A stretch of DNA of 64,000 bases from Candidatus Bathyarchaeia archaeon (GCA_050010755.1 JBEKKK010000002.1:1-64000); one strand, 5' to 3'; counted from the first letter of the stretch, positions 1 to 53,543 are shown. Translations and numbers: made by a program. Notes: a model not told the origin generated them from the sequence alone.

Positions 1-1350
1 TCCTTACTTGGAAATACCACCTTTCCAGACTCGAACTTATGCTCTTCAAAGTTAACCTGTCTTTTGGCAAGAATCTTTAAAACTTCGTCAAGCCTTTTCT
101 CCGTCTGTTCTCTTCTCGTGGTTTCCGCTCTTCTTTCGTCCTCAGCTTGTGCAAGAGCCTTTTCTAGCTCTTCAATCTTAACATGGTTTTTGCCGTTTCC
201 GTTAATGACTATTGACGGCATAGCTCGAAGGTAAACATCTCTAAGCTGGTCGGTTGAAATGTAAGCACTTTCCGCAATTTTCTTGCCTACGATTTGCTTC
301 CATTGACTCTCACTAGCCACGGCACTTAATCGGTCAATCAGATATTTTCTTAGGTTGTGGAATCTTACTCTTTTTTCGCCAGCTACGAGATGAGCCTTTT
401 CGAACAGTCGTTGAAGACATTGGGTTAAGCTTTGTTCGTCCCAATCGAGAACCTTATCACTGTCTTTTGCTTCTGGGGTTCGCTCTAAAAATGCCTTAAC
501 GATTTGCACAGCGTCACTATCAAGAAATGGGTAAGCTGGAATATGCTCTTTCTGGGTCACGACTTCACCTAAGCTAATTGGTGCTTCGCCTTCGATGTGG
601 ATGCTCCGAAAATCTCCATAAGTGAAGGTTAGAAAATCGCCCGCTCTCAATCCAACACTTTTCCCAACGAGCAAAACATAACGCTCGGTAGGGCTTGCTT
701 GTTCGCTCATTTTGGCTAAGTCTTCCTTCGTAAAAAGATAGTCTTGGGTGCTTCTGTTTGTTTCTTGCAGAGTTTTTGTTTCGCTCCGAGTGAATTCGAG
801 TTTCAATCTGTGTGAAGCCAGAAAGCCTCTTATTGCCGAAGAGCCTAATGTGGCGAAGTTCTCACTCTTTCCCTTTTCAATCAACCACGCTTTGAACGCT
901 AAAACCTTTTTCTGGGTTAGTGCGTCCGTATCCGCTTTCCTAAACTCTAATGTTTCTTTCCCGTTCATGCCACTAAAATTAATCCAATACTTGAAGAGCG
1001 GCGAATAAGCGTTTTTAGAATGAGGCTTTAGACCGTTGAGAAATTCCGTAAGAACCGAGTCGAATTCTTGAGCACATTCGATTCTTTTCATTCTCTCACT
1101 TCCCTTTAATGTCTCTGGGTCTAAATGGCTCAGAGAATCCAAAAAAAGAAATGAAGCTTGAAGACTCGGTTTTTGGCTTTTCCCTCTTCTTTCCGAAAGC
1201 TCCAACAGAAAAACCCTTTTTGTTAGCACCTTAGTTCTTTCGTGTGCCCATGTTTCGAGTTTTTCCGTCTTCATGTCGTTTTTGTCTTACCATACTATAA
1301 TGCGAAACATCTATAAATAGTTTCGTGTAAACAAATCATATTGACTGTTA
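1..1350. mobile_element. Right end of a probable integrated element carrying the integrase
   Basis: Integrase gene pointing away from a junction where a chromosomal repeat copy is truncated (~1348). Confidence 0.55.
3..1091 (-). CDS. Tyrosine recombinase/integrase, partial (runs off left edge; absent from ORF track)
   Basis: Manual translation MKRIECAQEFDSVLTEFLNGLKPHS...VGKSVGLRAGDF...RVRFHNLRKY...IVGKKIAESAY shows catalytic R, HxxR and Y motifs; frame stays open upstream to ATG 1274. Confidence 0.88.
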   Translation of the reverse strand, partial: MKRIECAQEFDSVLTEFLNGLKPHSKNAYSPLFKYWINFSGMNGKETLEFRKADTDALTQKKVLAFKAWLIEKGKSENFATLGSSAIRGFLASHRLKLEFTRSETKTLQETNRSTQDYLFTKEDLAKMSEQASPTERYVLLVGKSVGLRAGDFLTFTYGDFRSIHIEGEAPISLGEVVTQKEHIPAYPFLDSDAVQIVKAFLERTPEAKDSDKVLDWDEQSLTQCLQRLFEKAHLVAGEKRVRFHNLRKYLIDRLSAVASESQWKQIVGKKIAESAYISTDQLRDVYLRAMPSIVINGNGKNHVKIEELEKALAQAEDERRAETTRREQTEKRLDEVLKILAKRQVNFEEHKFESGKVVFPSK

Positions 1351-1397
1351 AATGCAACATTACATCTGATGTAAAGAAAAAAAGGGGAGGGGGGGGC
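1348..1397 (+). repeat. Dispersed polarised repeat copy 1 (5'-truncated)
   Basis: TTAAATGCAACATTACATCTGATGTAAAGAAAAAAAGGGGAGGGGGGGGC; lacks the CAACATGG left part. Confidence 0.92.
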
Positions 1398-2032
1398 GCC
1401 CGCAACGATTTGCACATTGCAATCTCAAACAGATTCAGACCTGGAGCTCAAGGCCGCCGGACGACTCATAAGACGAGCTTTAACGCGCGCGCTAAGCGGA
1501 CACCACCGTCTGGCATGTCTATTTGAAATCTTAATTGGCCATACTGAAAACTTAAGAACAGAAAAAGCCAGACCTATCGCCGACCCCGACAGGTTGGAAC
1601 AACATGAAAAAGAAAGCACGCAACAAACCTTCCGATCTCCCAGCGCCCACCAGCAACGTCGAATACGGCGTCTTCTTCTATCAACGAAACGGATGCAAAG
1701 TGCGTGCAGAACTCTCCAAACGAACAGATTCCAAATCTGCACAATTAACCGCAGAAACAATCACAGCATAATCACACAAGTGCACGTTGTTTCTCACTTT
1801 TCTCTCATGGCTTCATGCATACTCGAGATATGCGGAACAATGCATTTCCAGGAACCTATCATCCAACGCCAGACTGTGCCCCACAAACGGAGATAATTTG
1901 AGAGAACGTGCTAACAAACCGATCCTATGTTTTTTCTTTCCCTTCGTCGAAATGCGACCTCTCCGACCTGAAGTAGCCACGCATTTGAACGAAGACGAAT
2001 AGAGCCAACACGACTTCCTGACGCCAACGCAA

Positions 2033-2198
2033 GCGCGCGCTTCTGAAATTCAGTGCTTCCAAATCTCTCATATAGTCTCATGACCAAATCTGTCTTTCTA
2101 ACTTTGCTCTGATGCCTCATGTCCAGAATGTAGTAGACAACACCTATCAACACACCCGCAGAAGCAATGGCGATAGAAACAGTCTGTATATCAATCAT
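2033..2198 (-). pseudogene. Truncated tandem paralog of the DUF4760-like gene
   Basis: MIDIQTVSIAIASAGVLIGVVYYILDMR...TEFQK matches the N-terminus of 2200-2670, then similarity stops at GCGCGCGC (2033-2040). Confidence 0.75.
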
Positions 2199-2199
2199 T

Positions 2200-2670
2200 T
2201 TACGCACCTTTTTGTTTGAGCTTCTGTTCTCTTTTCTGCATTTCATTGTAGAGGTATTCAAACCATTCGAGTATGGTAGGTTGATTTCTGATTTTCCTAA
2301 TTTCAATTACGTTGTCCTTCATTTTGAGCCATGTGTCGTTGACAGGCATGGTGAACATGTCATCTATCAATTCTATGTCTATGAGCTTTCTCTTCAGTAG
2401 AATACCGATTCCTTCAAAGAACAAACCTACTGCACTCACTTCGGTCGAACCGTACTTCTCATTATATTCACGATAATTCTTGGCTTCTCTGTTCAGAATG
2501 TCATGCCAAATTCTTTGGAATTCAAGACTGTTGAACTGTGAATAGAGGCTCATCACAAGGTTCGTTTGTCTTTGTCTAGCCTGATTTCTCATATCTAGAA
2601 TGTAGTATACAACACCAACTAACACACCTGCTGCAGCTACTACTGCTGAGACCTCTGTAATGTCAACCAT
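2200..2670 (-). CDS. DUF4760-like membrane-anchored protein
   Basis: N-terminal TM helix followed by FFEGIGILLKRKLID and EWFEYLY motifs. Confidence 0.8.
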   Translation of the reverse strand: MVDITEVSAVVAAAGVLVGVVYYILDMRNQARQRQTNLVMSLYSQFNSLEFQRIWHDILNREAKNYREYNEKYGSTEVSAVGLFFEGIGILLKRKLIDIELIDDMFTMPVNDTWLKMKDNVIEIRKIRNQPTILEWFEYLYNEMQKREQKLKQKGA

Positions 2671-2859
2671 CGGAGATACCGATTAGTTCTATTCGGATAG
2701 GTTCAGCTATAACTTTTCCGCAAAACCGCAGGCGTGAACCTAAAAACAAGAAGAAGAAGAAAAAGATAAAACTTTATCCAACGCATAGTAAACGTGCTCC
2801 AATGATAAGTCGCCGTAGAGTTAATACAATCCGAAAGTGACTTTCAACTGGCGAGAAAT

Positions 2860-6387: not shown

Positions 6388-6500
6388 ACCTTTTCCACAT
6401 AACCCCGCCGATTAAACGAATCACCCGGATTAACCGACAACGAGCAGTACAAGCAACATTAATAGCGCGCGTAGAAACACCGATTCAGAAGCACTCACGG

Positions 6501-6570
6501 CAACATGGACACATATGTGTGTCCATTACATCCCAACATTACATCTGATGTAAAGAAAAAAAAGGGAGGG
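6501..6570 (+). repeat. Dispersed repeat copy 2 (subtype B)
   Basis: CAACATGGACACATATGTGTGTCCATTACATCCCAACATTACATCTGATGTAAAGAAAAAAAAGGGAGGG. Confidence 0.92.
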
Positions 6571-6619
6571 CCTGCGGTTCAGTGCCTCTTTTCTTATCCA
6601 AGTTTTCATGGTTAACACG

Positions 6620-8330: not shown

Positions 8331-8412
8331 GCCACCGAAAACGGAACTGCTATTCTTAAAGGTTTGTAAACACGCGAGCTCTCCTCTTGCCCGACTCATT
8401 CCATCGTTCTTT

Positions 8413-8486
8413 CAACATGGAAAACTTACAAAGCAACATTACATTACAACATTACATCAGATGTAAAGAAAAAAAAGGGAGGGGGC
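8413..8486 (+). repeat. Dispersed repeat copy 3 (subtype A)
   Basis: CAACATGGAAAACTTACAAAGCAACATTACATTACAACATTACATCAGATGTAAAGAAAAAAAAGGGAGGGGGC. Confidence 0.95.
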
Positions 8487-8570
8487 AAGCTTCATAGCAG
8501 AAACCGAATAATCAGACGGTAAACTCGAACAAAAGGGGCCATCGGCACGCGCCACCGTGCCGGAACCAGA

Positions 8571-8674
8571 TTTAATTCTTTCTTCGGAACACTGCCCACG
8601 TAACATGGAAATTTACGCTTACACATTACAAAGCAACATTACAATAGACGTAAAGAAAAAAAAAGGGAGGGGGC
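8571..8674 (+). repeat. Dispersed repeat copy 4 (subtype C, with 5' extension)
   Basis: TTAATTCTTTCTTCGGAACACTGCCCACGTAACATGGAAATTTACGCTTACACATTACAAAGCAACATTACAATAGACGTAAAG-A9-GGGAGGGGGC. Confidence 0.93.
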
Positions 8675-8714
8675 AACCACAACGATTCGTGCAGAGAGCG
8701 ATTATTATTCCGCT

Positions 8715-14542: not shown

Positions 14543-15115
14543 TTAGCTCTTTCCACTCGCACGCTCTGGCGTCGATTGCGAAATGAAATTCGTGATGATT
14601 TCTGGGTTCAGAACTTCTGGATGGAACAAACAACCATAGAATCTCTTGTGTTTGTGTTCAAACATGCAGGTTAAGTTTCCAGAATGGCCTAGCGTTTCAA
14701 AGTTTTCATTCGGCTCTACAGCTTTGGAATTCAAGAAATAGGAGTTAAACTCATTCTTGGATGTGAGGTTGTTTTTCCTTACGATCTTGACTCTGTATTT
14801 GCCGATTCTTGTCCTCTCGAGGAGTCTGCAGTCGTAGAGTTTTCCAAGAATTTGCATTCCTGCGCACAGGCCGAGAACGGGCTTGTCAACTTCCGTTATC
14901 CACGTGAATTTCTCCATTTTGTCCATGTATCCAAAATCCTTCATGGCTGTTCCGCATATGATCACCCTTTCAGCTTGGCTGATGTCCCGACGATTCAGAC
15001 TCAGGTAGCGCTTTGTGACAGAATTCAATCCGGTTTTCCCAACAATGTCTTCGACAGGTTTCACAAACTCAAAATAGCTGAGTCCGTCCGAACAAACGTT
15101 GACTATGAGAATCAT
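14543..15115 (-). CDS. Class I glutamine amidotransferase (stand-alone)
   Basis: PVLGLCAGMQ nucleophile elbow and FHPE. Confidence 0.88.
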   Translation of the reverse strand: MILIVNVCSDGLSYFEFVKPVEDIVGKTGLNSVTKRYLSLNRRDISQAERVIICGTAMKDFGYMDKMEKFTWITEVDKPVLGLCAGMQILGKLYDCRLLERTRIGKYRVKIVRKNNLTSKNEFNSYFLNSKAVEPNENFETLGHSGNLTCMFEHKHKRFYGCLFHPEVLNPEIITNFISQSTPERASGKS

Positions 15116-15792
15116 TTGTCCATCAACCTGACATGTTTTATCGTGAACACGCCTGAATAGTCCTTGTAAGACACGTCATGATCCAAGATTTCGAGTCTTC
15201 TCTTAAAAAAAGGGGCATCCGTGACCGTGGTCTCCAATTCCCCACCTTCTCCAGCAGGGCTCAAGCCGTATTCTTGCTTCAACCTCTCCAGCCTCCGAAT
15301 CATATCAATGTCCAACCTTCGGCCTAGGAATTCTCTGTTCAAAGGAAAAGCAAAAACGCCCGATATGATAACTTCGAATCCACCTTGAACAACCTCGTTC
15401 AAGAGTTCAATCTCATCCTTAAGCCACAATGGGTCAAAGCACCACAAACCGAGTCGATTACAGATTCTCTGCACACGCGTCGACTGGTACACTGATTTCA
15501 CGGCGCCCGTCACGATTCCTCCTAAGCCAAAATCGGCTTTGGCCTCATCCACAGCACTTTTCAAGTCCTCAAGTTCCCTCTCTTTCTCGCCCTTCGTCCT
15601 TCTCTGAACAATAGGCAGCCCGATGGCCTCAGCCTGTCTCCCAGTCACCTCTATGTTGGGCACATGAAACATGTAGCTCTCCCGGTTCTCGGAAATCAAA
15701 CTGATCAAACAAACCACATCGTGAAAACACATCGACTTCTGCAACGCCAAACAAGAATCCTTCCCACCTGAAAACAACACCCCAACTCTCAT
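15112..15792 (-). CDS. Diphthine--ammonia ligase (Dph6) family PP-loop ATPase
   Basis: LFSGGKDS, SYMFH, PLW and GEGGELET motifs. Confidence 0.9.
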   Translation of the reverse strand: MRVGVLFSGGKDSCLALQKSMCFHDVVCLISLISENRESYMFHVPNIEVTGRQAEAIGLPIVQRRTKGEKERELEDLKSAVDEAKADFGLGGIVTGAVKSVYQSTRVQRICNRLGLWCFDPLWLKDEIELLNEVVQGGFEVIISGVFAFPLNREFLGRRLDIDMIRRLERLKQEYGLSPAGEGGELETTVTDAPFFKRRLEILDHDVSYKDYSGVFTIKHVRLMDK

Positions 15793-16009
15793 GAACCGTG
15801 ACTAGAACACCCTCCGCTAATAAAGACATTTTTCCCTCCTTCAAGACAAACAAGCCAAAACAACAAAACCGAACAAGATAGCTTTGCGATGCACGAAGCA
15901 CGTGAAATTGCATGGATCCATGTCCATGAAAAAACAAAACTATATTGAGCAGGTCTGACAGAATGACCCCGCCCTCGAAATACTTCGAAGACAAACGGAT
16001 GGCGCACAA

Positions 16010-17689
16010 TTGAAGGAGAAGAGTATCTTTGCTTATTCACTCACATTTCTCTTAATTCTCGGCGTTCTTTCATTACTCATGGCGCGGTATGGCCCTTCCA
16101 GCTCCTGGAAATTTCTGCTTGCCCTTTATCCGTTGGTCGTGATTCTGTTCGGGGTCGCCTTTCTGCGCAGAAGCGGTTTGTTCATGGCCGTGGTTGGCTT
16201 AGTGCTCGTCATCGCGTTGGCATTCCTGCAGTTCAGCACACCGTTTGAGGTGACTTTGCGTGCTTCATTGCACGGATTTCTCAGCAGTTTCGGGGTCTCA
16301 ATCTCGGTTGCTGCAACCATGCTGATGATATACCTCATGAAGGAAGCAGGCGCGCTTCAGACCGTTTCCAAAGTCATCAAGCAGCAAGTAATCGGTGATG
16401 AAGTCCGAGCGTTATACATCGGAATCGGCTTCGGCTCCTTCCTCACTTCCCTTGGCGTTGTCACTCCGGCACTGTTTCCTCCCCTCCTTCTGGCAATGGG
16501 TTTCAGCCCACTTGCTTCCATTGCCATAGCCGTTCTCGGCTACAATGCCACAACGAGCTTTGCGTTACTATCCATTCCCATAACTCTTCCAGCCTCCACT
16601 TTCGGCTTCAACCCCTTGGCCTTAGCCTTCAAAATCTCTGCTTTTCTACCCGTAATTTCAACGGGCTTTGCCTTTGCCGTCCTCTGGTTAATAGGCGGGA
16701 AAAAGTCGATGCGTAAAGGCGCCGTTCCGGCGCTAATCAGCGGCTTGGTTCTGGCCTTCGCCTGTCTTGCAACAACAAGCCTCGACTACTTCACCGGAGT
16801 GCAAATCGTTCCTCTCACACTCGTCGGAGTCATAGCAGGACTCTCCGCTATGCTCTCACTTCACCTGTATCAGAGACTCAAGCCCACACATGCAGAAGTA
16901 GTCAAGGATGCCGACTATCCGCCGAACCGCGAGGTTTGGCGTTCCTTTTCCCCCTGGATAATCCTCTCAGTGCTGGCAGGGGTCACGAGTATAAGTCAGA
17001 TCAGTGATTGGCTCCTACATTTTCCAGGAGACGCGCAGGTGATCAGAGTCTTCTCCAACGAACCAATCAACCTGAAGATTCTAACAGAGCCCTACACCTG
17101 GATATTCATCGCCATACTCCTGTCACTTTTCACCCTCAAACCTACAAAAAGCCAGATGAAAACCGCCACGAGCGTCTGGCTCAAACATTTCCTCGGCCCA
17201 TTCCTAACCTACAGCCTCTACTTTTCAATATCCTTCGTGATGGCGTTCTCAGCAATGCAGATCGTAAACGGTGCCCTGAACACAAATCCCCCAGGCTTCA
17301 ACCAACTGAACATGAACGTGATTCTAGGCACAACACTCGCATCAGTATTCGGCGCGGGCTACATCTTCGTAGCCGCCTCACTCGGCCTCTTCGGCGCAAT
17401 AGTCGCCGGCTCAGAAACCAGCTCCAACATCCTCTTCTACAGCATCCAAAAAACCGCCACCAACAGCCTCGGCCTAAACTCAGACTTCATGACAATCTAC
17501 AGTAGCCACGCCGTAGCAGGAGGCGTCGCAAGCGCCGTGACCCCGGCCAAAATCAACAACGCCGTAGTCACCATAGACGAATCACACGAAATCGAATCAC
17601 AAATGATGAGAAAAAACCTCATCATCGCACTCGCCCTAACAATCGCAACAGGCATACTCACAGCCGTACTCATCAGCCTAGGAATCTAA
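16010..17689 (+). CDS. L-lactate permease (LctP) family transporter
   Basis: Many TM helices; GAIVAGSETSSNILF and GGVASAVTPAKI motifs. Confidence 0.8.
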   Translation: MKEKSIFAYSLTFLLILGVLSLLMARYGPSSSWKFLLALYPLVVILFGVAFLRRSGLFMAVVGLVLVIALAFLQFSTPFEVTLRASLHGFLSSFGVSISVAATMLMIYLMKEAGALQTVSKVIKQQVIGDEVRALYIGIGFGSFLTSLGVVTPALFPPLLLAMGFSPLASIAIAVLGYNATTSFALLSIPITLPASTFGFNPLALAFKISAFLPVISTGFAFAVLWLIGGKKSMRKGAVPALISGLVLAFACLATTSLDYFTGVQIVPLTLVGVIAGLSAMLSLHLYQRLKPTHAEVVKDADYPPNREVWRSFSPWIILSVLAGVTSISQISDWLLHFPGDAQVIRVFSNEPINLKILTEPYTWIFIAILLSLFTLKPTKSQMKTATSVWLKHFLGPFLTYSLYFSISFVMAFSAMQIVNGALNTNPPGFNQLNMNVILGTTLASVFGAGYIFVAASLGLFGAIVAGSETSSNILFYSIQKTATNSLGLNSDFMTIYSSHAVAGGVASAVTPAKINNAVVTIDESHEIESQMMRKNLIIALALTIATGILTAVLISLGI

Positions 17690-17789
17690 CACTCACATCT
17701 ATTTCGAAATTGTATTGCCGGAGCGTGAAAGAGCATCGAAGGGACCTTCCGCCGCTAGAGCGAGTGCGCTGTTTTTGAATAGACAGCTG

Positions 17790-17867
17790 CACGTAACATG
17801 GAAATTTACGCTTACACATTACAAAGCAACATTACAACAGACGTAAAGAAAAAAAGGGGAGGGGGGC
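17790..17867 (+). repeat. Dispersed repeat copy 5 (subtype C)
   Basis: Near-identical to copy 4: CACGTAACATGGAAATTTACGCTTACACATTACAAAGCAACATTACAACAGACGTAAAG-A7-GGGGAGGGGGGC. Confidence 0.95.
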
Positions 17868-36143: not shown

Positions 36144-36145
36144 GC

Positions 36146-36868: not shown

Positions 36869-36884
36869 CAAAATCGGTGCAGTT

Positions 36885-36960
36885 GCCCCCTCCCCTTTTT
36901 TTCTTTACATCAGATGTAATGTTGCTGTGTAATGTTGCCGTGTAAGTTTTCCATGTTGCG
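36885..36960 (-). repeat. Dispersed repeat copy 7 (subtype A)
   Basis: + strand reads GCCCCCTCCCC-T7-CTTTACATCAGATGTAATGTTGCTGTGTAATGTTGCCGTGTAAGTTTTCCATGTTGCG. Confidence 0.95.
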
Positions 36961-37068
36961 CGTGCGCGTTGCGGAAAACGCTAAAACTTGGTCCTAGCTG
37001 GAGTCTAGGTCGCCCTTTTTCTTCGGGTTTGCTCTGGCATCACTTAGATTGCGATGTTGAACGGTGCT

Positions 37069-37169
37069 CCCCTCCCCTTTTTTTACACACATCAGATGTA
37101 ATGGATCCGTGTAATGGATCCACGTGTGTGTCCATGTTGCGTGGCGCAGTGTTCCGGAAAAAGAATTAA
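37069..37169 (-). repeat. Dispersed repeat copy 8 (subtype B, with 5' extension)
   Basis: + strand reads CCCCTCCCC-T7-ACACACATCAGATGTAATGGATCCGTGTAATGGATCCACGTGTGTGTCCATGTTGCGTGGCGCAGTGTTCCGGAAAAAGAATTAA. Confidence 0.92.
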
Positions 37170-37259
37170 TTTTGGTTCTGGCTTGTGTTGCGCGTGCTGG
37201 TCGTCTCTTTTGTTCGAGTTTGTCGATTAACGTTATGTGGTTTCGACGATGAAGCGTGA

Positions 37260-37332
37260 CCCCCTCCCCTTTTTTTCTTCACATCAGATGTAATGTTGCA
37301 ATGTAATGTTGCAGCGTAAACCGCGATGTTGC
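37260..37332 (-). repeat. Dispersed repeat copy 9 (subtype A variant)
   Basis: + strand reads CCCCCTCCCC-T7-CTTCACATCAGATGTAATGTTGCAATGTAATGTTGCAGCGTAAACCGCGATGTTGC. Confidence 0.93.
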
Positions 37333-37455
37333 TTTTTGTCCTTGTGTCCAGTGTTTGTGAGGTTGGTTGTAGTGCGCTTGGGTGATGCTGTTTTGATGTG
37401 AGTATGTTTTTATTAGTGCTTGGAGGTAACGTATAGGCTGGGAGGTTTGTGTTGT

Positions 37456-38427
37456 TTGAGTTTCGAGATGTGGGCTGAGAAGTACAGGCCAAAGAAGCTG
37501 AGCGATATTGTTGATCAGAAGGATATTGTGGAGCGTTTGAAGAGTTTCGCGGAGTCTAGGAACGTTCCTCATTGCATTTTTGCGGGGCCGCCGGGCACTG
37601 GGAAGACGACTGCGGCTCTTTGTTTGGCGAGGGATCTTTATGGTGATGTGTTTAGGGAGCATATGCTGGAGTTGAATGCGAGCGATGAGAGGGGCATTGA
37701 CGTGGTGAGGGAGACCGTGAAGACTTTTGCGAGGGTGAAGTCGATTGGTGAGATTCCGTTTAAGATTATGATTCTGGATGAGGCGGATAACATGACTTCT
37801 GATGCTCAGCAGGCGTTGAGGCGAACGATGGAGCGTTACACTGGGACTTGCCGTTTTATCATGTGTGCTAATTATAGTGGGAGGATAATCGAGCCCATTC
37901 AGTCCCGTTGTGCTCCTTTCAGGTTTGCTCATTTGCCGAGAGAAGCTCAGGATTCTTACTTGAAGGGCATTGCCGAGAAGGAGAAAGTGAAGTTGTTAGT
38001 TGATGGTTTCGAGGCTATTTTTGAGGTTTCTGGCGGAGACTTGAGACGTGCCATTAATACGCTACAGTCTGCTGCTTCCTTGGACAAGCCCATTGATGCG
38101 AAGGTTGTTTATTCTGTTACTGGAAAGGCTAGCCCTGCAGACGTGGCGAAGATGATCATGACGGCTATGGAGGGTGACTTTGTCGGTGCGCGAAAAAGAC
38201 TGCGCGAAATGATCCAGCAGTACGGTGTGGCCGGGAGCGATTTGATGCGTCAGATTCACACGGAGATTTTCAGATCTGAGATGCCCGAGCAGTGGAAGAT
38301 AAAGCTGGCTGACGTTGTGGGTGAGGCGGATTTCAGGCTCGTTGAAGGAGCTGATGAGGAGATCCAGTTGAGCGCGTTGCTGGCTAGGCTCGTTGAAGCA
38401 GGCTGCGACATGAGAAGCGCAAAATAG
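37456..38427 (+). CDS. rfcS: Replication factor C small subunit
   Basis: WAEKYRP, GPPGTGKT, ELNASDERG, LDEAD and SRC motifs. Confidence 0.97.
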   Translation: MSFEMWAEKYRPKKLSDIVDQKDIVERLKSFAESRNVPHCIFAGPPGTGKTTAALCLARDLYGDVFREHMLELNASDERGIDVVRETVKTFARVKSIGEIPFKIMILDEADNMTSDAQQALRRTMERYTGTCRFIMCANYSGRIIEPIQSRCAPFRFAHLPREAQDSYLKGIAEKEKVKLLVDGFEAIFEVSGGDLRRAINTLQSAASLDKPIDAKVVYSVTGKASPADVAKMIMTAMEGDFVGARKRLREMIQQYGVAGSDLMRQIHTEIFRSEMPEQWKIKLADVVGEADFRLVEGADEEIQLSALLARLVEAGCDMRSAK

Positions 38428-40080: not shown

Positions 40081-40797
40081 TTAAGTTTTGCGCGTTTTCC
40101 TTCTGCGACGTATTTTTTCAATGGTTTTTTCAACGCCTTCCCAGCCTTCGACTGACTTCGAATGGACTATTTCGAAGGCTTCCTTCGAGTTCATCATGAA
40201 AAGTTCTTGACCCACGGCTCTTCTTGAAAGGTATGCTGCTGCATTCAGGATTTCGCCGTTCAAAAGTGAATCTGTGGAGTCTGCCAAGTGGCATATCAGA
40301 GCCTCAACAGTCTTCGGTCTTATCGGTCCTGCCTCGCCATGGTGTGCCGATACTATGTGAATCAGTTCCAGCGGAAAGTCCCTGCGAACGAGTTCCGAAG
40401 TTGCGAGTAACAGGTGGTCCAAGTAGTCGGCCAAGCTTGCTGAGCTGTAGCTTCCGTTCTTGTTGATCGTGTAAGTTGCTGGTTTGAATATGTCGTGCAA
40501 CAGAACGCCTGATATGACAAGGTCGCGGTTTACTTTGCCGTGGTACGTGTTCTCAACGGAGTCGCACAATGCTAATGCGAGGTTTGCTGTTGAAGCGACG
40601 TGCTCAATGTATCCGCCGGGGTAGCTGTGATGACGTGAGATGCCGGCGGGCGATGTTTTAAGTGGTAAGCCTGTGTATGTTCTGCCGTTGATTTCGATGC
40701 TGGGGTTTTTCAGCAGTTCTATGACTTTTCGGCGAAGGGGCTCGTTGCGAATTTTTTTGGCCAATGCGTTGAGTGTTGGATCCAGCAATTCATTCAC
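40081..40797 (-). CDS. HD-domain hydrolase (YhaM-like catalytic domain)
   Basis: PAGISRHHSYPGGYIEH, LLHDIFK, SAHHG and HLAD motifs. Confidence 0.85.
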   Translation of the reverse strand: MNELLDPTLNALAKKIRNEPLRRKVIELLKNPSIEINGRTYTGLPLKTSPAGISRHHSYPGGYIEHVASTANLALALCDSVENTYHGKVNRDLVISGVLLHDIFKPATYTINKNGSYSSASLADYLDHLLLATSELVRRDFPLELIHIVSAHHGEAGPIRPKTVEALICHLADSTDSLLNGEILNAAAYLSRRAVGQELFMMNSKEAFEIVHSKSVEGWEGVEKTIEKIRRRRKTRKT

Positions 40798-41483
40798 TAA
40801 CGGTTCTTAATGTCATAGAGGATATTGATTTTTCGTTTTTCTGCTGTTGCTAGGCTGTGGGCCATGAGAATGGGTTCTGGTATTCGGTTGTTCTTGGCGC
40901 AGTGCCTGACTATTTCGATGGCAGTTTCTAGAGAAATCATGTTTCCAACGCTGACGTAGACGGGTTTGCATCCTCTGTTGGTTATCACTGCTGCGCCGAC
41001 GATTTTTTGGTGGTACTCGATGAGATTCGCATCGGCTTCGGATTTTGCGGCTTTGACTTCGCCTATCAATTTGTTTTTTGCAACGCCGATTACCGGTTTT
41101 CTCAGAATGAGTCCCAGATGGCTTGCAAGTCCGCAGTGGTAAGGGTGCGCGAAACCGTGGGCGTCTACCATGAACAAGTCTGGTTGGTTGCCCAGTTTTC
41201 GGATGCACTGGATTGCGGGTTCTGCTTCTCTGAAGGAGAGTAGGGTTGGAATGTAGGGAAAACGGGTCTTGCAGAAGGCTGTTTGCTTTTCCATGGGCTT
41301 GAAGGAGTCATAATCTAGAACTGCCACGGCTCCTATTGATGTGCCTTCGGTATAGGCGATGTCTACTCCAGCTACTGTGCGGATTGTTTTGGGGAGTCTG
41401 TCCTGGAAAACGATCTTCTCGGACATGCGTAGTTGTGTTTGGTGGGCTTTCTTGGCGGAAAAGTGATGCTTGATGTTATTCAC
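40797..41483 (-). CDS. nfi: Endonuclease V
   Basis: AGVDIAY, FPYIPTLLSFRE, GLASHLG, GVAK and RIPEP motifs. Confidence 0.95.
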   Translation of the reverse strand: MNNIKHHFSAKKAHQTQLRMSEKIVFQDRLPKTIRTVAGVDIAYTEGTSIGAVAVLDYDSFKPMEKQTAFCKTRFPYIPTLLSFREAEPAIQCIRKLGNQPDLFMVDAHGFAHPYHCGLASHLGLILRKPVIGVAKNKLIGEVKAAKSEADANLIEYHQKIVGAAVITNRGCKPVYVSVGNMISLETAIEIVRHCAKNNRIPEPILMAHSLATAEKRKINILYDIKNR

Positions 41484-41509
41484 CGATGTTTTTCGGTGCC
41501 GGTGGGGGT

Positions 41510-42148
41510 TTATTTTCTGCTTTTGGCGTATTTTTCAAACTGTTTGAGATGTTTCTCGAGTTCGTTTCTTCGGATTTCTTGGGTTATGTCTCCGCGTGTG
41601 ATCTCGATGAGTTTTCTGGCGACGTCGCATTTTCTTCTTAGGCCTGGCACTAGCATGTAGGATTCGTCCATGGCCATGAGTTCGATGTAGATTTGGTCCA
41701 TTGTTTGCAGGTATTTTTCTCCTTTTCTTGTGTTACCTTCGCGCAGCGCGTCGAGCACGGCTCTTCGGCATTCGCCTATGACATCGGCCAGTCCGAGGAT
41801 GTAGTCATCGGATGGGGCATCGATTTCTTTGGGCGTTATGAACTTTGATTCTTGGACTAGCTTTAGGAATATGTTTGCTTCCGAGTATTCTTGAAGGGCG
41901 GCGCTGTGTTGGCCGCTGTAGATTATGCTGGGTTGCGATGCTGACATTTCGTTAACTGTTAGAATGTTTTTGTGGGCTTTTTCGATGGATTTTTCTGCTT
42001 CTTTTAATCTTTTTTGATGGATGAGGAGTATTGCTTGTTTGGAGAGGCTTGTTGCTTCTCTTAGGTCTTTGAAGGCTGTTTCGCGCACTTTGTCCTTGCA
42101 CATTAGCTCTTTTTTTGTTTCGTTCAGTATGGTTTTTAGTGTGTCCAT
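41510..42148 (-). CDS. Translin/TRAX (C3PO) family protein
   Basis: ALQEYSEA, YILGLADVIGE and LRRKCD motifs. Confidence 0.92.
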   Translation of the reverse strand: MDTLKTILNETKKELMCKDKVRETAFKDLREATSLSKQAILLIHQKRLKEAEKSIEKAHKNILTVNEMSASQPSIIYSGQHSAALQEYSEANIFLKLVQESKFITPKEIDAPSDDYILGLADVIGECRRAVLDALREGNTRKGEKYLQTMDQIYIELMAMDESYMLVPGLRRKCDVARKLIEITRGDITQEIRRNELEKHLKQFEKYAKSRK

Positions 42149-42244
42149 TGCGTTGGCTCCTTTTCGTATGGAATGTTTAGAATGAACGGGTATTTTATGG
42201 TATCTTCAAAAATAGGGAGGGGCGACTGTTGCCGTGTGCCTTGT

Positions 42245-42442
42245 TCATTCTTCTGGTGCTGGTTCTATCCATTTCTCTACCAGTAGTTTGGTGTCGCCGC
42301 TTGGTTTGAAGGATATCTTTACGAATATGGAGTCGGAGCCCTTGAATGGGAACATGCTGTCTTCGGCTAAGTCTTTCGGAATGTAGATGAGGAATTTGCC
42401 GTCTTTTCTTCGGAATAGGCGCCCTCGTCCGTCATTAACCAT
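42245..42442 (-). CDS. Small hypothetical protein, AbrB-like swapped hairpin
   Basis: GKFLIYIPKDLA pattern; SD-like GAGGTG upstream. Confidence 0.65.
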   Translation of the reverse strand: MVNDGRGRLFRRKDGKFLIYIPKDLAEDSMFPFKGSDSIFVKISFKPSGDTKLLVEKWIEPAPEE

Positions 42443-42729
42443 CCATCAACACCTCGATTTAATCTTTGGTTTAAGAGTAAGGGTAATGCTCAAGGGAATA
42501 TAAGCTTTGTTCTCATTTGATTCAAGAATACCTCTTGTTAATCTGGGAAGTTGTCCAATATTGAATAAACTGCAAAGAATATTGCGCATTGTTAAATCTC
42601 GTAGAACTGCGAGGATTGCTCACCAGTGTAATCGGGGCGTTCTGCGGTGGGCTGGACGCATTTCGAGTTTGGCAACCTTCGGGTTTGTTGCGCGGCTGTT
42701 TCAGGGATGAGAATGGGGTTGTCGAGTTG

Positions 42730-43911
42730 TTAGGAGTCGAAGCAGTATTGGGGTTTCTGGAATTCGGTTGCGAGTTTTGCTACGCTTTTTTTGATGGTGT
42801 CTGGTTTTTCGTTGTCGATGATTGTTCTTTTGACTAGTTCGGCTATTTTCTGCATTTCTGGTTCTTTCATTCCGCGTCTTGTGGCTTCGCAGGTGCCGAA
42901 TCTGATTACGCAGTCTGTGATTATGTTTGCGCGTTGGAGTTTTTCTGCTATGGTTCTTCCTTTTTCGTAGTTTCCATAGTCTACGATGACCTGGTGTGAC
43001 TGGGTGAAGCCTATCTGGCCGCAGACGACTGGGCAGCCGATGTCATTCAGTGCTTTTGCTAGGGTTTTCGCGTTGCGTGTGACTTGTGTGGCGTAGGCTT
43101 TGCCGAATCGTTTCATTTCTGCTAGGGCCATTGCGAGGGCTGCGATGCGGTTCCAGTGGGCGTTGTCTACGAAGGCGGGGTAGATTTTTTGTTTTAGGGG
43201 TTCTCCGATTTCTTTGTTTGCGAGTAGTATGCCTCCTTGTGGGCCGAAGAGGCTCTTGTGGGTTGAGCCGAACAGGGCTTCTGCTCCTTCGCGAAGTGGG
43301 TCTTGGAATTGTTGGCCGGCGATGAGTCCTAGGACGTGGGAGCCGTCGTATCCTACGGTTGCGCCGTTTTCGTGGGCGATTTTGGCCATGGTGGCGAGTT
43401 GGTATGGGAAGAGTATGAGGCTTGCGCCGAAGATGACTATTCGGGGCTTGTGCTGTGTTATGGCTTGTTTGGCTTCTTCGGTTTTTATGTTCCAGTCTGT
43501 TTTTGAGAATGGGAAGGGGATTGTTTTGAGTTTGAAGAGTCCTGCGAGGCCTTCGTTCCACATTCCGGGGTATCCTCCGTCTTCGGGGCTGATGCACATG
43601 AGGGTGTCGCCGGGTTTTGTGAGGTTTGCCAGGATGATGGTGTCGGCGATGTGTCCTGAGAGGGGTCGCAGATCCGCGGTTTCGGCTTTGAAGAGTTCTC
43701 TTGCGAGTTTTTCGCCGGTTTGTTCGATTTCGTCGGTGAAGTGTGTTCCCATGTAGAACCGATCTACCGAGGTGTAGCGGTGTGCGAGTTCTGAGCTGAG
43801 AAGTTTGCGCGCTGTCGGGCTCATTATGTTCTCGGATGGGATTAGGTTTAAACACTGTTTGCCGCGCCACTCTTCATGCTTTTTGACCAGGTTTAGAATT
43901 TCCTCGCTCAT
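42730..43911 (-). CDS. glyA: Serine hydroxymethyltransferase
   Basis: LNLIPSEN, YDGSH, GSTHKSLFGPQGG and TRRGM motifs. Confidence 0.95.
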   Translation of the reverse strand: MSEEILNLVKKHEEWRGKQCLNLIPSENIMSPTARKLLSSELAHRYTSVDRFYMGTHFTDEIEQTGEKLARELFKAETADLRPLSGHIADTIILANLTKPGDTLMCISPEDGGYPGMWNEGLAGLFKLKTIPFPFSKTDWNIKTEEAKQAITQHKPRIVIFGASLILFPYQLATMAKIAHENGATVGYDGSHVLGLIAGQQFQDPLREGAEALFGSTHKSLFGPQGGILLANKEIGEPLKQKIYPAFVDNAHWNRIAALAMALAEMKRFGKAYATQVTRNAKTLAKALNDIGCPVVCGQIGFTQSHQVIVDYGNYEKGRTIAEKLQRANIITDCVIRFGTCEATRRGMKEPEMQKIAELVKRTIIDNEKPDTIKKSVAKLATEFQKPQYCFDS

Positions 43912-44093
43912 GTCTGGATGCCTCGAACCCAATACTGCTCATTTCAGGCTTAAGTTGCTTTTCGTTGACGCACGTTTGCTCGCACGCACCTGCTTCCATG
44001 ATTCTGGGGCGAATATTTTTTGGTGCCTTACGTTCGGGTTCAAGGAGTGGTTTAGCAGGATCATTAGTGTGAAGCTTACGAGTGGCGCGATCG

Positions 44094-44168
44094 GCCCCTC
44101 CCTTTTTTTTCTTTACATCAGATGTAATGTTGCAATTTAATGTTGCTTTGTAAGTTTTCCATGTTGCG
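44094..44168 (-). repeat. Dispersed repeat copy 10 (subtype A)
   Basis: + strand reads GCCCCTCCC-T8-CTTTACATCAGATGTAATGTTGCAATTTAATGTTGCTTTGTAAGTTTTCCATGTTGCG. Confidence 0.95.
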
Positions 44169-44377
44169 CGGGGGCGTTCCGAGAAAGGCAGGGACTTGTT
44201 GGGCGCGAGTTGCAATATTGTGTTTTTCATCATCCATCGTGGATGGTTTATTGTCAAACAGCCGGGACGTCGGACGGAACCGTTAAGAAGGGGAAACCGT
44301 TTTGTGGCTGATTTCGGAATTGACATCCGAGTGAGGGTTGTGGGGCGATGAAAAGGTAAAGTTTAAAATGCACCCTA

Positions 44378-46561
44378 GTGTTAGAGTTGTTCACAATCTT
44401 GGATGTATGGTTCGAGGGAAGACGGTTGGCGAAGATTCGGCTTAGAGCCAAACAGTTGACGTGTTTGTTCTTGATGTTTACATCTGTGCTGTTGGGTTTT
44501 TCATTCTTGCCCAGGGCCAAGGCTCAGATGGAGGTGTTCTCCGTTACTCCTACGACTGGAAATGTGGGTACTAACGTTACGGTGGTGGCGAACCTGACTA
44601 CGGTGAATGGGGCGTATAATGTTGCTTTTAATGGGGCAGTTCTTGCGGTTGGAACTGCTGTTGGAAACAGTGTGACGGCTTCGTTTTTCGTTCCGGAAGC
44701 CGCGGCCGGCAATTACACGGTAACGGTAAACGATGTGAGCGCTAATGAGAGCGCCACGTTTGAGAACTTCACTGTTTTGACAGCGTATTTCCTGAATGTG
44801 ACTGTGCCTCCCGCTCCCGCCCAGTTTCAGGAAGGCAACTCGGTGCCGATTTCGTTTAATGTGACTGGTGATGGTGCCGACGTTGCTGAAGACGCTCAGA
44901 TTGAGGTTGTGAACCCAGATGGTTTATCATATCAAGAATCGGTAGGCCTTGTAACATCAGCACTTGGAAGCGGCGTCGTAACGGTGCCTTATCCTGGGAA
45001 TTTCACTTCGGGCGCTAACACGAACTTCGTTGGCATTTACACCGTTTCCACTGTTGCTAACGGCACTTTGGTGTCGCCAATCGGGTTCCCGGTGGGCTTG
45101 ACTAATTCGACGGAATATCACAGGCTGCAGACGGTTTACATAGTGGCAACCGGATACAATGTTAACGAAAATGTCACGCTGAATGTGACGGGAACCAACG
45201 TTCAATATTCCGTGAACTTGACCGCCACCCCTGCGGGTTTAATCAATTTTTCGGGCTTTGTAGTACCGACGAATGCGACTGTGGACAACTACACTGTGAG
45301 CATTGTTTCAACAGAGATCGCTCTTCCTACGGCGAAGGTTCCTCCAGATACCCAGGTCTTCGAGGTTCCAGGTTTTGCTTTCAATGTGACTACGGTGAAT
45401 TTGGCCGGAGAGGCTGTGCCAGGCGTCGTTGTTGAGGCGTTTGAAAACGGGACGTCGGTCAGCAATCAAACGGCCGATTCGAATGGTCTGACGGTGTCTA
45501 TGCTTGAAATTGGGAACTTCACTTTGGAAGGATTTTATCAAGCTGTAGAGGTCGGAGAGGGCAATTTTACGGTGAACAACACTGAGACAGGTAATCTTGT
45601 GCTCAATCTTACGGATCTTGGCGTTAAGGTTGTTGCATTTGTGAACGGCAATGAAGTGGGTATTCCCGAGGCGGGGGTGAACTTGACGCCTGTGGACGTG
45701 ACTTTGTTTACTGATGTCAACGGAAATGCGGAAGAGCAATCGTTGCTGCCGAATAGTACCTACGATCTGACAGCGGGTCGGTACGATACGCTGTTCAACG
45801 CGACGAACGTTATTGAGTCTTCTTCCAATAGCACTCTGTCCAACGGAACGATTTTGAATCTTTTTGTTGGTGAAAGTCCAGTTGCAGTCTACAACGTGAC
45901 CATAGCTTGTCCGTCGTTCGCGTTGCAAATCGTGGCCTTGGAGGCGAGTGGGCAGCCGTTTAGTAATGCGACGGTGGAGGCAAGCGAGCTGGCTGGCGGT
46001 ATTAACTATGAAGGAAGTACAGATTCGAGTGGTGCTGTCGTTTTCCAGAATGCCACTTTTGGCGAGTACTATGTGGAAGTTTTTGACAGTGCTGGAACGG
46101 AGATTAACAGCACAACGTTGGAATTGTTCCAGGATCAAAATGTGACCGTGAACTGTTATCTCTACGGCTTGAGTATTTCGGTAACTGTGACTGATTACTT
46201 TGGTCAACCTTTTGGGAACACAGAGGTAACGTTGCAGGGAAATGGTGTTCAGCCTGTTTCGAGTAGAACACAGGCCAATGGCACGGTTACGTTCGCCAAT
46301 CTGGTAGGGCAAAGTTACAACGTCTCGGTTTACTTGTCAAATAATGGTTCGCCGAATTACGTGGCGAATCTTTTTGTTGACGGTTCAACGGCGGTTTCGA
46401 TTAAGATGAACAGGTACGTGTTGCTGGCTGGCGATCCAGTGGAGACAACTCAACTGGTTGTGGTCATAATCATCGTACTGACCGTGCTTCTGGTGCTTGT
46501 GTTTGAAGTATTCAGGAGAATGAGAGGCAGGGGCAAGAAACAGACGGTTGAGTCGAAATAA
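44378..46561 (+). CDS. Cell-surface glycoprotein with repeated Ig/prealbumin-like folds
   Basis: Signal peptide, many NxT/S sequons, repeated TDxxG motifs, C-terminal TM and basic tail; start uncertain. Confidence 0.8.
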   Translation: MLELFTILDVWFEGRRLAKIRLRAKQLTCLFLMFTSVLLGFSFLPRAKAQMEVFSVTPTTGNVGTNVTVVANLTTVNGAYNVAFNGAVLAVGTAVGNSVTASFFVPEAAAGNYTVTVNDVSANESATFENFTVLTAYFLNVTVPPAPAQFQEGNSVPISFNVTGDGADVAEDAQIEVVNPDGLSYQESVGLVTSALGSGVVTVPYPGNFTSGANTNFVGIYTVSTVANGTLVSPIGFPVGLTNSTEYHRLQTVYIVATGYNVNENVTLNVTGTNVQYSVNLTATPAGLINFSGFVVPTNATVDNYTVSIVSTEIALPTAKVPPDTQVFEVPGFAFNVTTVNLAGEAVPGVVVEAFENGTSVSNQTADSNGLTVSMLEIGNFTLEGFYQAVEVGEGNFTVNNTETGNLVLNLTDLGVKVVAFVNGNEVGIPEAGVNLTPVDVTLFTDVNGNAEEQSLLPNSTYDLTAGRYDTLFNATNVIESSSNSTLSNGTILNLFVGESPVAVYNVTIACPSFALQIVALEASGQPFSNATVEASELAGGINYEGSTDSSGAVVFQNATFGEYYVEVFDSAGTEINSTTLELFQDQNVTVNCYLYGLSISVTVTDYFGQPFGNTEVTLQGNGVQPVSSRTQANGTVTFANLVGQSYNVSVYLSNNGSPNYVANLFVDGSTAVSIKMNRYVLLAGDPVETTQLVVVIIIVLTVLLVLVFEVFRRMRGRGKKQTVESK

Positions 46562-52514: not shown

Positions 52515-52588
52515 GGTTTTTTCACCGCCATTAATAATGTAGGTTTATATGCGGTGTGTTTGCTAATAAAACAGTTTGGTGTTGAAGT

Positions 52589-53347
52589 TTGAAGGTTTTG
52601 CTTCATGAGATGAGTTGGCCTGAGGCTAAGGAGTACTTTTCGAAGAACGACATTGCGATTCTTCCAGTTGGCGCTAATGAGCAGCATGGGGGGGCGAACC
52701 CGTTGGGGACGGATCATCTTATTGCCAAGAGCATCGGGGAGGAGACTGCGAGGCGCACGGGCGTTGTGTGTCTGCAGGTTGTTCCGTTCGGTGTTAGCGC
52801 GCATCATAAGCAGTTTTGGGGGACGATTTTTATTTCTCCTAAGTCGTTGAAGAGTTACGTTAGAGACGCGTGCCAGTCTCTCATGTATTATGGTGTGCGT
52901 AAGATTGTGGTTGTTAACGGTCACGGGGGTAATTTGGCGGCTTTGACGGAGTTGGCTAGGGAGTTGAGGGAGGAAGGGGTTTTCATGTCTGTTTTTCAGT
53001 GGTGGCCCGCGGCTGGGAAGCTTGTGCCCGACGTTTTCACCGCTATAGAACGGAGGCACGCAGGGGCTGAGGAAACATCTGTGAATCTGGCTTTACACCC
53101 GAACCTTGTCAACATGAAAGCAGCGTTTGATGAGAAGCCTCGTGAACACGCGTTACAAGGCGAAGGCCTAACACTACCGTTAAGCACGGTGGATGAGACA
53201 GGCTCAGGCGTTTACGGGACACAATCAACAGCTTCGGCAGAAAAAGGCAAGAAAGTCCTGGAAGCCTGCATAAGCGAGCTAGTCAGACACGTCAACCTGC
53301 TGAAGAAGGCAAGAATGGACGATCTAATACAGAAGCCGAAGGTCTAA
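52589..53347 (+). CDS. Creatininase family amidohydrolase
   Basis: PVGANEQHG, LGTD, NGHGGN and HAGAEETS motifs. Confidence 0.92.
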   Translation: MKVLLHEMSWPEAKEYFSKNDIAILPVGANEQHGGANPLGTDHLIAKSIGEETARRTGVVCLQVVPFGVSAHHKQFWGTIFISPKSLKSYVRDACQSLMYYGVRKIVVVNGHGGNLAALTELARELREEGVFMSVFQWWPAAGKLVPDVFTAIERRHAGAEETSVNLALHPNLVNMKAAFDEKPREHALQGEGLTLPLSTVDETGSGVYGTQSTASAEKGKKVLEACISELVRHVNLLKKARMDDLIQKPKV

Positions 53348-53372
53348 AAACGAAATTCATGCGAGGGCTGGT

Positions 53373-53431
53373 CCCACGGCTTTTTTTCTTTACGTCTATT
53401 GAAATGTTGCTTTGTAATGTTGCTTTGTAAA
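53373..53431 (-). repeat. Dispersed repeat copy 11 (subtype C-like, degenerate G-tail)
   Basis: + strand reads T7-CTTTACGTCTATTGAAATGTTGCTTTGTAATGTTGCTTTGTAAA. Confidence 0.85.
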
Positions 53432-53484
53432 GCCGTATTTAAACGTCCGTGTCGAAGGTTGACGCGGACTGGGAGAATCTGCCG

Positions 53485-53543
53485 GCCCCTCCCTTTTTTT
53501 CACACACATCCAATGTAATGGATCCACATATGTGTCTATGTTG
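53485..53543 (-). repeat. Dispersed repeat copy 12 (subtype B, one unit shorter)
   Basis: + strand reads GCCCCTCCC-T7-CACACACATCCAATGTAATGGATCCACATATGTGTCTATGTTG. Confidence 0.88.

Follow-up and report, generated by a model that had tools for sequence, protein, structure and literature searches.

REP/BIME repeats (repetitive extragenic palindromes and bacterial interspersed mosaic elements) are high-copy intergenic repeats with palindromic parts and mosaic arrays of different unit types, which often lie at gene 3' ends, are species- or genus-specific and serve as insertion targets for other mobile elements. Here we analyze a family that shares these traits, a repeat of ~100 bases with 12 copies in a 64,000-nucleotide stretch of a Candidatus Bathyarchaeia genome (GCA_050010755.1 JBEKKK010000002.1:1-64000; hereafter, the window). 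It is a lineage-specific, polar, mosaic intergenic repeat, it is split by recombinase-bearing inserts, and its flanks carry a strand-asymmetric substitution footprint. To our knowledge, no REP has been reported within a kilobase-scale zone of strand-asymmetric mutation, and none was found in our literature search either. Judged on titles and the beginnings of abstracts, the literature searched holds no report of repeat-centered strand asymmetry, and within it the element-centered zone of asymmetric substitution is undescribed; no report pairing Bathyarchaeia with an intergenic repeat was found. Archaeal chromosomes are thought to carry little mutational strand skew (PMC12999951).

Anatomy and distribution of the repeat

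An nhmmer profile built from genome copies yields exactly 12 matches in the window, at the places and on the strands given by a first-pass annotation (Table 1), and, over the entire genome (G000; 2.19 Mb in 8 contigs, 93% complete, 47.7% GC), 81 copies distributed among 49 intergenic loci. The 49 same-strand clusters comprise 23 single, 20 double and 6 triple ones; the multi-unit clusters, being defined from same-strand matches, are head to tail in 26 of 26 cases, and the arrays align in register, with a ~185-nt period and a semi-conserved spacer. Triple arrays, in which the order of subtypes (see below) is often B-C-A, can be aligned whole, and their similarity ends just past the last G-string.

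The consensus of the 68 near-full copies among the 81 is ttttcggaacac-N7-cangCAACATgGAaActtACg…CATTACAnnGCaACATTACAtCtGAtGTAAAgaAAAAAAgGGGaGGGG. Its information content drops to zero right past the G-string and fades gradually on the 5' side. The unit is longer than was proposed in the annotation and includes a 5' part, YTTTTCGGAACAC-N~10-CAACATGG. This T-rich 5' part and the G-string 3' end are unlike, in keeping with the reported lack of terminal inverted repeats, and the 13-nt phasing of the TTACA-type boxes (CAACATTACAnnG) was described correctly. The palindrome TTACATCWGATGTAA, with up to two mismatches, occurs nine times in the window (0.19 expected; at least nine in 0 of 100 shuffles). 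Although introduced as a perfect 15-bp palindrome, it is perfect in six of the 12 window copies, has one or two mismatches in three and is more degenerate in three; it is imperfect in many of the 81 genome copies. Three or four mosaic subtypes contrast in a ~20-nt module after CAACATGG, which is AAAACTTACAnnGCAACA in subtype A, AAATTTACGCTTACACA in subtype B and a set of alternating purine-pyrimidine palindromes, for example, ACACACGTGG/GGATCC or ACACATATGTGT, in subtype C, with subtype D as a more distant form (…CAACATTACAACTAACCTCACAAACGCAGAGnCGGGGGG). The 5' and 3' subtype parts combine in mixed ways across copies. That all copies are intergenic holds relative to the Pfam-supported genes of the window, whereas genome-wide 5 of the 81 overlap crude calls of open reading frames (ORFs) by more than 30 nt.

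In relatives, a one-copy BLAST query matches 5 of 41 genomes, G000 included, and a sequence-only covariance model with 59 matches in G000 has one match in 1 of 60 other genera of the family. Two of the four congeners (G001-G004), namely G002 and G004, have a diverged family that shares the TTACA boxes, an A-rich run and a G-run. An exact 27-mer scan of metagenomes returned 69 loci, some identical to G000, others from sister genomes (roughly 72-94% DNA identity) that bear the same family, often at orthologous loci. No element is present at the divergent junction of the gltB-like and RFC-S genes (~330 bp) in G001-G004 or at the ancestral junction of the permease and mrp genes (~95 nt) in the congeners; the SHMT locus of G000 holds additional DNA, element included, that is absent in G002-G004 (Table 1), and in the congeners the two sides of the eRF1 array are not neighbors. 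Beside one gene, two sister genomes have an array and G000 has none. In that filled/empty pair, homology starts exactly past GGGAGGGG, and at this one clean comparison there is no target-site duplication, as the annotation had maintained. We find no support for its further proposal that the family could represent a new chromosome-level system: the element is young, repeat-like and restricted to a lineage, being found in one of 60 other genera and missing at orthologous intergenic sites of all four congeners.

A bidirectional terminator or insulator, with the 5' T-tracts acting on the motif strand and CCCCTCCC-T7-9 on the other strand, would suit the placement of the repeat next to genes: the upstream neighbor is co-directional at 34 of 47 loci, in the convergent cases the G-string ends 7-50 nt from the stop codon, and oligo-T is an archaeal termination signal. 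However, seven loci lie between divergent gene starts, the congeners lack the element at the same junctions, and the boxes, palindrome, arrays, mosaicism and mutational footprint would all be left unexplained; we regard this function as highly improbable.

Other identities were tried and rejected. Consistent with the earlier view that this is not a described RNA family, an Rfam gathering search of the window returned two tRNAs only, and an E-value search of an array gave one match at E=9.8. Folds of five copies on the forward strand (z from +0.76 to -1.61 relative to shuffles) and of three on the reverse strand (one at z -2.48) are not clearly better than shuffles, and the apparent long-range covariation of TTACA/TGTAA, TTACG/CGTAA and CACACA/TGTGTG fails in mosaic copies; a structured RNA was dismissed on all these grounds. 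A small protein starting at the ATG of CAACATGG is contradicted by the lack of conservation of this ATG, by single-base indels that shift the frame and by the differences between orthologs. The 20 downstream co-oriented genes scanned have unrelated functions, which speaks against a pathway regulon, and the orientation of the element switches many times along contigs (on the 1.44-Mb contig, once within 4 kb), which speaks against replichore-scale orientation. Searches of G000 for a Y1 transposase (PF01797; the control search was positive in 6 of 14 known genomes) and for a reverse transcriptase (PF00078) gave no matches. With no reverse transcriptase, the polypurine 3' end and variable 5' end are only resemblances to a short interspersed (SINE-like) retroelement; with neither terminal inverted repeats nor a target-site duplication, the element does not qualify as a MITE (miniature inverted-repeat transposable element).

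The related units of G002 and G004 (loci L002, L004, L007, L008, L010 and L011) combine TTACA boxes with a GC-rich hairpin followed by TTTTC, terminate in ACAAACAAAAAGAGGGGG and lack the inverted box. Two loci from different genera, L003 (G021:C16) and L005 (G003:C14), hold a near-identical single element-like copy within near-identical flanks, just downstream of a convergent ORF (a glycoside hydrolase, at a guess from its residues); this near-identity suggests recent transfer or a binning problem. In the flanks of these two and the six G002/G004 loci, the motif strand is A+C-rich in 12 of 16 cases, a weak effect. A further motif, GCGCGCGC, has 506 counts over both strands of the whole genome (~250 sites, e.g., window ~6440), roughly estimated as ~10 times the expectation from composition; 494 of these counts lie outside elements. 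Close to gene ends and where element arrays begin on their 5' side, it is frequently found in the form TTAGCGCGCGC.

Strand composition and substitution around the repeat

At 50-2050 nt from the element, the A+C-rich strand is the motif strand in 39 of 46 upstream flanks and 41 of 46 downstream flanks. The mean flank skew is 0.09 upstream and 0.14 downstream; a set of 441 co-directional gaps that lack the element, oriented with their genes, averages 0.03 (Mann-Whitney p = 1.5e-6 and 1.3e-11). The skew profile peaks at +0.13 to +0.14 within 1-2 kb of the element, declines downstream to ~0.04 by 4 kb and to zero by 12 kb, and upstream has a longer low tail (~0.02 by 8 kb); the genome-wide 1-kb skew has a mean of 0.001 and a standard deviation of 0.099. 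Downstream skew increases with the number of units, from 0.106 for one to 0.142 for two and 0.219 for three, and of the 110 1-kb windows whose absolute skew is at least 0.2, 56 are no more than 4 kb from an element, a proximity shared by only 340 of all 2183 windows. The sign of the skew does not change at the element, that is, both sides have the same polarity. An origin or a resected double-strand break predicts a sign change at the site, and therefore neither fits.

The skew resides at third codon positions and follows the orientation of the element, not that of the gene, reaching +0.80 in gltB and +0.74 in SHMT, which are co-oriented with the element, and -0.68 in hypA, -0.68 in mrp, -0.53 in RFC-S and -0.43 in eRF1, which are anti-oriented. 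Owing to the scarcity of T, the A+C-rich strand opposite genes such as mrp contains long stop-free shadow ORFs, for example, that at window 36338-36871 (-), and a codon-usage gene caller picks the wrong strand in skew zones, as happened at mrp. Given that the genome-wide gene calls are crude in this sense, our argument rests on composition and on Pfam-supported window genes. Elsewhere in the genome, an 18-kb block (L137, G000:C1:152001-170000) has a strongly G+T-rich + strand and no element; of its 21 ORFs of at least 150 aa, 14 are on the + strand, and neither G002 nor G004 has DNA matching the block, which may represent an island of foreign origin and distinct composition.

In congeners lacking the element at these loci, the orthologs have moderate skews of +0.43 (gltB), +0.14 (mrp), -0.13 (hypA) and -0.08 (eRF1), and the sister genomes that carry the element share the extreme third-position skews. 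The sign itself flips in mrp, from +0.14 in G004 to -0.68 in G000, and in the permease gene, from -0.16 to +0.31. Between 14.5 and 52 kb of the window, G000 departs most strongly from G004 at each of the four element loci, by +0.47 in the permease and +0.37 in gltB, -0.82 in mrp, -0.49 in translin and -0.44 in SHMT, and -0.27 in PGM, and the sign of the departure matches the orientation of the element. Genes with a midpoint at least 3.5 kb from an element all differ by no more than 0.11; GATase, RFC-L and a tRNA-binding gene are nearer and are also unshifted. The footprint (Table 1) covers about 3.5 kb downstream and 1-2.5 kb upstream of each locus.

The substitution spectrum, compiled from synonymous third-position differences and scored from G004 to G000 on the motif strand, is strongly asymmetric within 3 kb of an element (n=1499; T>C 457 vs C>T 99, G>A 331 vs A>G 135) and symmetric farther away (n=798; T>C/C>T 147/137, G>A/A>G 160/136), with the same asymmetry among lineage-specific singleton changes. 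On the complementary strand, which bears CCCCTCCC-T7-9, the shift amounts to A>G and C>T. This combination is the signature of a strand that is often single-stranded, as in the mitochondrial heavy strand and the bacterial leading strand. Synonymous divergence is somewhat higher beside arrays (0.53 in mrp and 0.44 in hypA vs 0.16-0.34 far away). In the reciprocal cases, where the element is present in a sister genome and not in G000, three of three anti-oriented genes downstream of the element have lower values in the sister genome, with differences of 0.17-0.23, and one upstream case is opposite, by 0.08.

One rival is a passive selfish repeat (MITE-like, REP-like or akin to palindrome-associated transposable elements, PATEs), non-autonomously mobile or spread by recombination, and inserted or retained in one orientation relative to a pre-existing asymmetry that it did not cause, such as that of a frequently single-stranded strand. 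The lack of terminal inverted repeats and target duplications, the sharp 3' and fuzzy 5' ends, the subterminal palindromes and the lineage-specific distribution with vacant orthologous sites all agree with such a repeat, as do the weaker same-sign skews of congeners at gltB, SHMT and RFC-S and the skewed domains that lack an element (14 of 32). Nevertheless, the excess over the congener is centered on the element and decays with distance, mrp and the permease gene change sign, the effect grows with dose, the reciprocal cases go in the predicted direction, and the genome, at 93% completeness, yielded neither a Y1 transposase nor a reverse transcriptase. We consider a purely passive repeat unlikely.

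Alternatively, the units might each be transcribed from a promoter of their own, yielding an unstructured, A/C-rich RNA in which CAACAUUACA motifs recur and which could serve, for instance, as a sponge for a protein; the skew would then be transcription-associated. Many units have a TATA-like TTTTAACC or TTTCAGCC about 27 nt before CAACATGG, each ~185-nt unit ends in a T-tract, the neighbors are co-directional on both sides at 21 loci and opposed on both sides at 6, and downstream co-oriented genes score high on the codon model. The polarity, however, is wrong: transcription-associated bias takes the form of C>T and A>G on the non-template strand (PMC12999951), whereas here these changes occur on the would-be template strand. 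Furthermore, the skew reaches upstream too, at 19 of 48 loci the element is directed into a convergent gene's 3' end, the folds are not clearly better than those of shuffles, there is no Rfam match, and neither the ATG nor the frame is conserved. Small transcription units are, in our assessment, very doubtful.

Recombinase junctions, inversion and module exchange

Three copies break off right after CAACATTA (in one, after CAACATAA) and are followed by unrelated DNA, and three others start only at CAACATTACATC. Among the latter is the window copy at 1348, which was located correctly in the annotation but consists of only the 3' half of the element. Its left flank is unrelated DNA common to the other end of the contig, and the copy is the right junction of an integrated element running off the contig start. 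The core shared by both kinds of junction is 8 bp long, CAACATTA (CAACAT[T/A]A). On contig C1, the half-sites at 196164 (ending in CAACATAA) and 205484 (starting at CAACATTACATC) bracket ~9.3 kb, and the 9.4-kb region around this insert has 40% GC compared with 47.7% for the genome. The insert (L016, G000:C1:195700-206200) contains a gene for an HK97-gp10-like tail-completion protein (phrog_5, E 9.5e-13); its ORFs are mostly unannotated, and it resembles what is left of a provirus, its size being insufficient for a complete tailed virus.

The statement in the annotation that there is no transposase agrees with the missing Y1 enzyme; yet a gene for a divergent tyrosine recombinase abuts copy 1348. 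Paralogs of this integrase lie beside four right half-sites, at window 3-1274, the far end of C2, C1:204473-205420 and C3:24691-25641, the last adjoining a D-type half-site. By fold and residues, the protein is a tyrosine recombinase, with catalysis predicted. Residues R155, H251, R254 and Y283 (R..H-x-x-R..Y) are invariant in 30 aligned sequences, 8 of which match PF00589; there are more than 375 homologs; and the model of a paralog (pLDDT 86.8) has XerA (5hxy, 2e-9) as its best Foldseek match, with Xer, IntI, lambda Int, Cre and Tn1549 Int among the fold matches listed. A sequence search against the PDB produced coiled-coil noise only, and of the 26 integrase pattern matches in viral_contigs none was confirmed by tblastn.

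A sister genome (L108) has an intact element at the locus where C4:1757 of G000 is cut right after CAACATTA, and therefore the repeat is used as an attachment site (attB). Another locus, L093, maps to the flank of the half-site at C2:199369 and runs on into whole units. A repeat of ~80 copies serving as an integrase attachment site accounts for contig breaks and rearrangements in these metagenome-assembled genomes. For provirus integration in Bathyarchaeia, only tRNA targets are mentioned in the passages of PMC11705971 consulted. The window also contains what looks like a second, classical tRNA-targeted integrated element (59432-64000), in which a tRNA-Leu (59432-59519) is followed by a tyrosine integrase gene (59492-60445; PF00589, E 3.5e-14), with GC content falling to ~40% from 60 kb to the window end (64000).

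Element arrays of opposite orientation are also found at both breakpoints of a segment (window ~18090-36870 by BLAST blocks) that is inverted relative to G002 and G004. The gltB-like gene and RFC-S are 19 kb apart in G000 and adjacent in G001-G004. At orthologous loci in the sister genomes, the flanks and the 3' half of the element are kept and the 5' module (~20 nt) is swapped, which points to exchange between copies at the CAACAT repeats. The element behaves as dispersed, recombining repeat DNA.

The inverted segment, roughly symmetric around ~27.5 kb, contains the MCM, GINS23, GINS51, PriS, PriL and PCNA genes, with RFC just outside, so that the segment and its flanks hold most of the replication genes of the window, which also encodes aIF2-alpha and aRF1; the cumulative GC skew is lowest near 28-30 kb. 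An orc1/cdc6 gene was not seen, and no Cdc6-type domain was found among the 68 window ORFs. An archaeal origin in the form of a cluster of origin recognition boxes (ORBs) was rejected, given the 49 loci, this lack of a Cdc6-type domain in the window and the equal polarity on both sides.

The annotation had likened the element to a directional multi-subunit protein-loading site. Polarity is borne out by the structure, the splitting at CAACATTA by recombinase-bearing inserts supports use as a protein recognition site, and the orientation-dependent footprint over kilobases is what a directional DNA transaction at the site would leave. As a polar protein-binding site, the element might be a fork barrier or a loading site for a helicase or condensin, with stalled forks exposing the lagging-strand template. 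The phased direct boxes with one inverted box, the A-tract and the G-string, the footprint of the same polarity on both sides and, in the window, the two orientations facing each other across the replication-gene cluster are compatible with such a site, and the bacterial and archaeal rule is that the G+T-rich strand is the leading one. Flips of orientation, once within 4 kb, are nevertheless a misfit with few replication origins; absent from the congeners and from 59 of the 60 other genera searched, the element cannot be a core system; the partner protein is only putative; and the sign change that an origin would give is not seen. We hold this possibility to be quite unlikely, ranking it below the passive repeat and above the transcription unit.

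Table 1 Coordinates of repeat copies and associated features in the window
Feature	Position	Strand	Details
Divergent tyrosine recombinase (integrase) of inserted element	3..1274	-	abuts copy 1348
Element 3' half, CAACATTACATC to G-string	1336..1399	+	nhmmer profile positions 41-104
Single element, 5' C-type and 3' A-type mosaic	6483..6573	+	between + gene and 3' end of - strand glyoxalase gene
Two-unit array (A, B)	8405..8677	+	units 8405-8489, 8578-8677; G-string end 38 nt from convergent eRF1 stop
Two-unit array (B, A)	17774..18044	+	units 17774-17870, 17946-18044; left inversion breakpoint, upstream of gltB-like gene
Three-unit array (B'/A, C, A)	36881..37337	-	units 36881-36980, 37063-37163, 37255-37337; right inversion breakpoint; degenerate D-like piece upstream
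Single A-type element	44089..44188	-	within ~330-350 bp of intergenic DNA missing from G002, G003, G004
Two-unit array	53366..53556	-	units 53366-53442, 53481-53556; G-string end 19 nt from convergent creatininase stop
Segment inverted vs G002 and G004	about 18045..36880 (18.8 kb)	.	BLAST blocks
+ strand A and C gain, third positions vs G004	15112..21149	+	delta +0.25 to +0.47
Minus-strand A and C gain vs G004	33774..38427	-	in + strand terms: mrp -0.82, hypA -0.54, PCNA -0.25, PriL -0.28, RFC-S -0.25
Minus-strand A and C gain around 44089 copy	40797..46561	-	in + strand terms: SHMT -0.44, translin -0.49, EndoV -0.20, 727-aa gene -0.20

A possible mechanism and known systems

We tentatively favor, at somewhat less than even confidence, a REP/BIME-like polar repeat that doubles as a recombinase attachment site and undergoes a recurrent strand-specific DNA transaction, the mechanism of which we infer. 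With the same reservation, each copy could be a cis-acting polar local mutator that rewrites synonymous sites, codon usage and even the sequences of neighboring proteins, and seeds inversions. A protein at the CAACAT boxes or the palindrome would repeatedly nick or open the motif strand, the likeliest actor being a site-specific recombinase or nuclease; the resident tyrosine recombinases, cutting in the CAACATTA box, are candidates. Resection (5'-3' removal) or unwinding would leave the complementary strand single-stranded over kilobases, cytosine and adenine would deaminate on this exposed strand, and later gap filling would fix the changes. Repeated nicking or opening of this kind agrees with the farther extent of the footprint on the downstream side and with its growth with unit number, and the same breaks could account for the rearrangements as well as for the exchange of modules.

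Several points weigh against this mechanism. The flank skew is non-positive at 5 of 46 loci downstream and 7 of 46 upstream, and of 32 strongly skewed domains, 14 lack an element in the surrounding 3 kb, so skew does not require the element. No other common repeat was found in these 14, one of which has no DNA match in G002 or G004 and may be foreign. Congeners already have weaker skews with the same sign (gltB +0.43, RFC-S -0.27 and SHMT), and insertion into places that were already asymmetric may therefore contribute. The gene-by-gene comparison covers four loci, in window 14.5-52 kb, plus the three reciprocal cases, and takes the direction of change from one or few congeners in an unrooted comparison. 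The nicking and the single-strandedness are both inferred, the acting protein is a candidate, and simple 5'-3' resection from a nick fits the downstream side better than the upstream side. The likeness of the arms of the proviral attachment site (attP) to the element is limited to the 8-bp core, and the boxes are putative integrase binding sites.

If the reading as a local mutator is correct, an archaeal chromosome can acquire a strong mutation bias, local and strand-specific, from a dispersed repeat, with flanking third positions reaching an A+C excess of +0.8 or -0.7 set only by orientation relative to the repeat. Such a repeat-centered, strand-asymmetric mutational process, which is not described for archaeal or bacterial chromosomes, would confound inference of expression from codon usage as well as gene calling, and would offer a way to study how DNA is nicked, resected and repaired in a lineage that is uncultivated.

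Compared with REP/BIME, the present units all run head to tail and do not alternate in orientation, the palindrome makes only a weak hairpin, the host is archaeal, and no RAYT (Y1 transposase) was found. As at the attB sites of tyrosine recombinases, split copies flank low-GC inserts with an integrase by one junction and a common short core, and the site is intact in a sister species; unlike the single tRNA gene that is usual in archaea, the target is a non-coding repeat of ~80 copies, the attP arms share the core only, and integrase binding of the boxes is putative. The layout of the boxes resembles integron attI, with its direct repeats beside an inverted core. With archaeal ORBs, the element shares polarity and a dyad followed by a G-run, but it has 81 copies and no Orc1/Cdc6 gene beside those in the window, the dyad and G-string are spaced by an A7-9 tract, there is no skew sign change, and the congeners lack it. 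Resemblance to the PATEs of IS200/IS605 lies in the lack of terminal inverted repeats and target duplication, the subterminal palindromes and the strong orientation bias relative to chromosomal strand asymmetry, and the TTAC-containing boxes recall the ISHp608 target; in contrast to PATEs, no Y1 transposase or TnpB-linked copy was found, the crossover is of the tyrosine recombinase type, and the asymmetry is local to each copy, not replichore-wide. Finally, as in kataegis and in the asymmetry of the heavy and light strands of animal mitochondria, C>T and A>G pile up on one strand, and the pattern is associated here with rearrangement breakpoints; unlike in those systems, the polarity is equal on both sides, where resection of a double-strand break would flip it, and the pattern is a fixed, recurrent, evolutionary one around a specific repeat of an archaeal chromosome.

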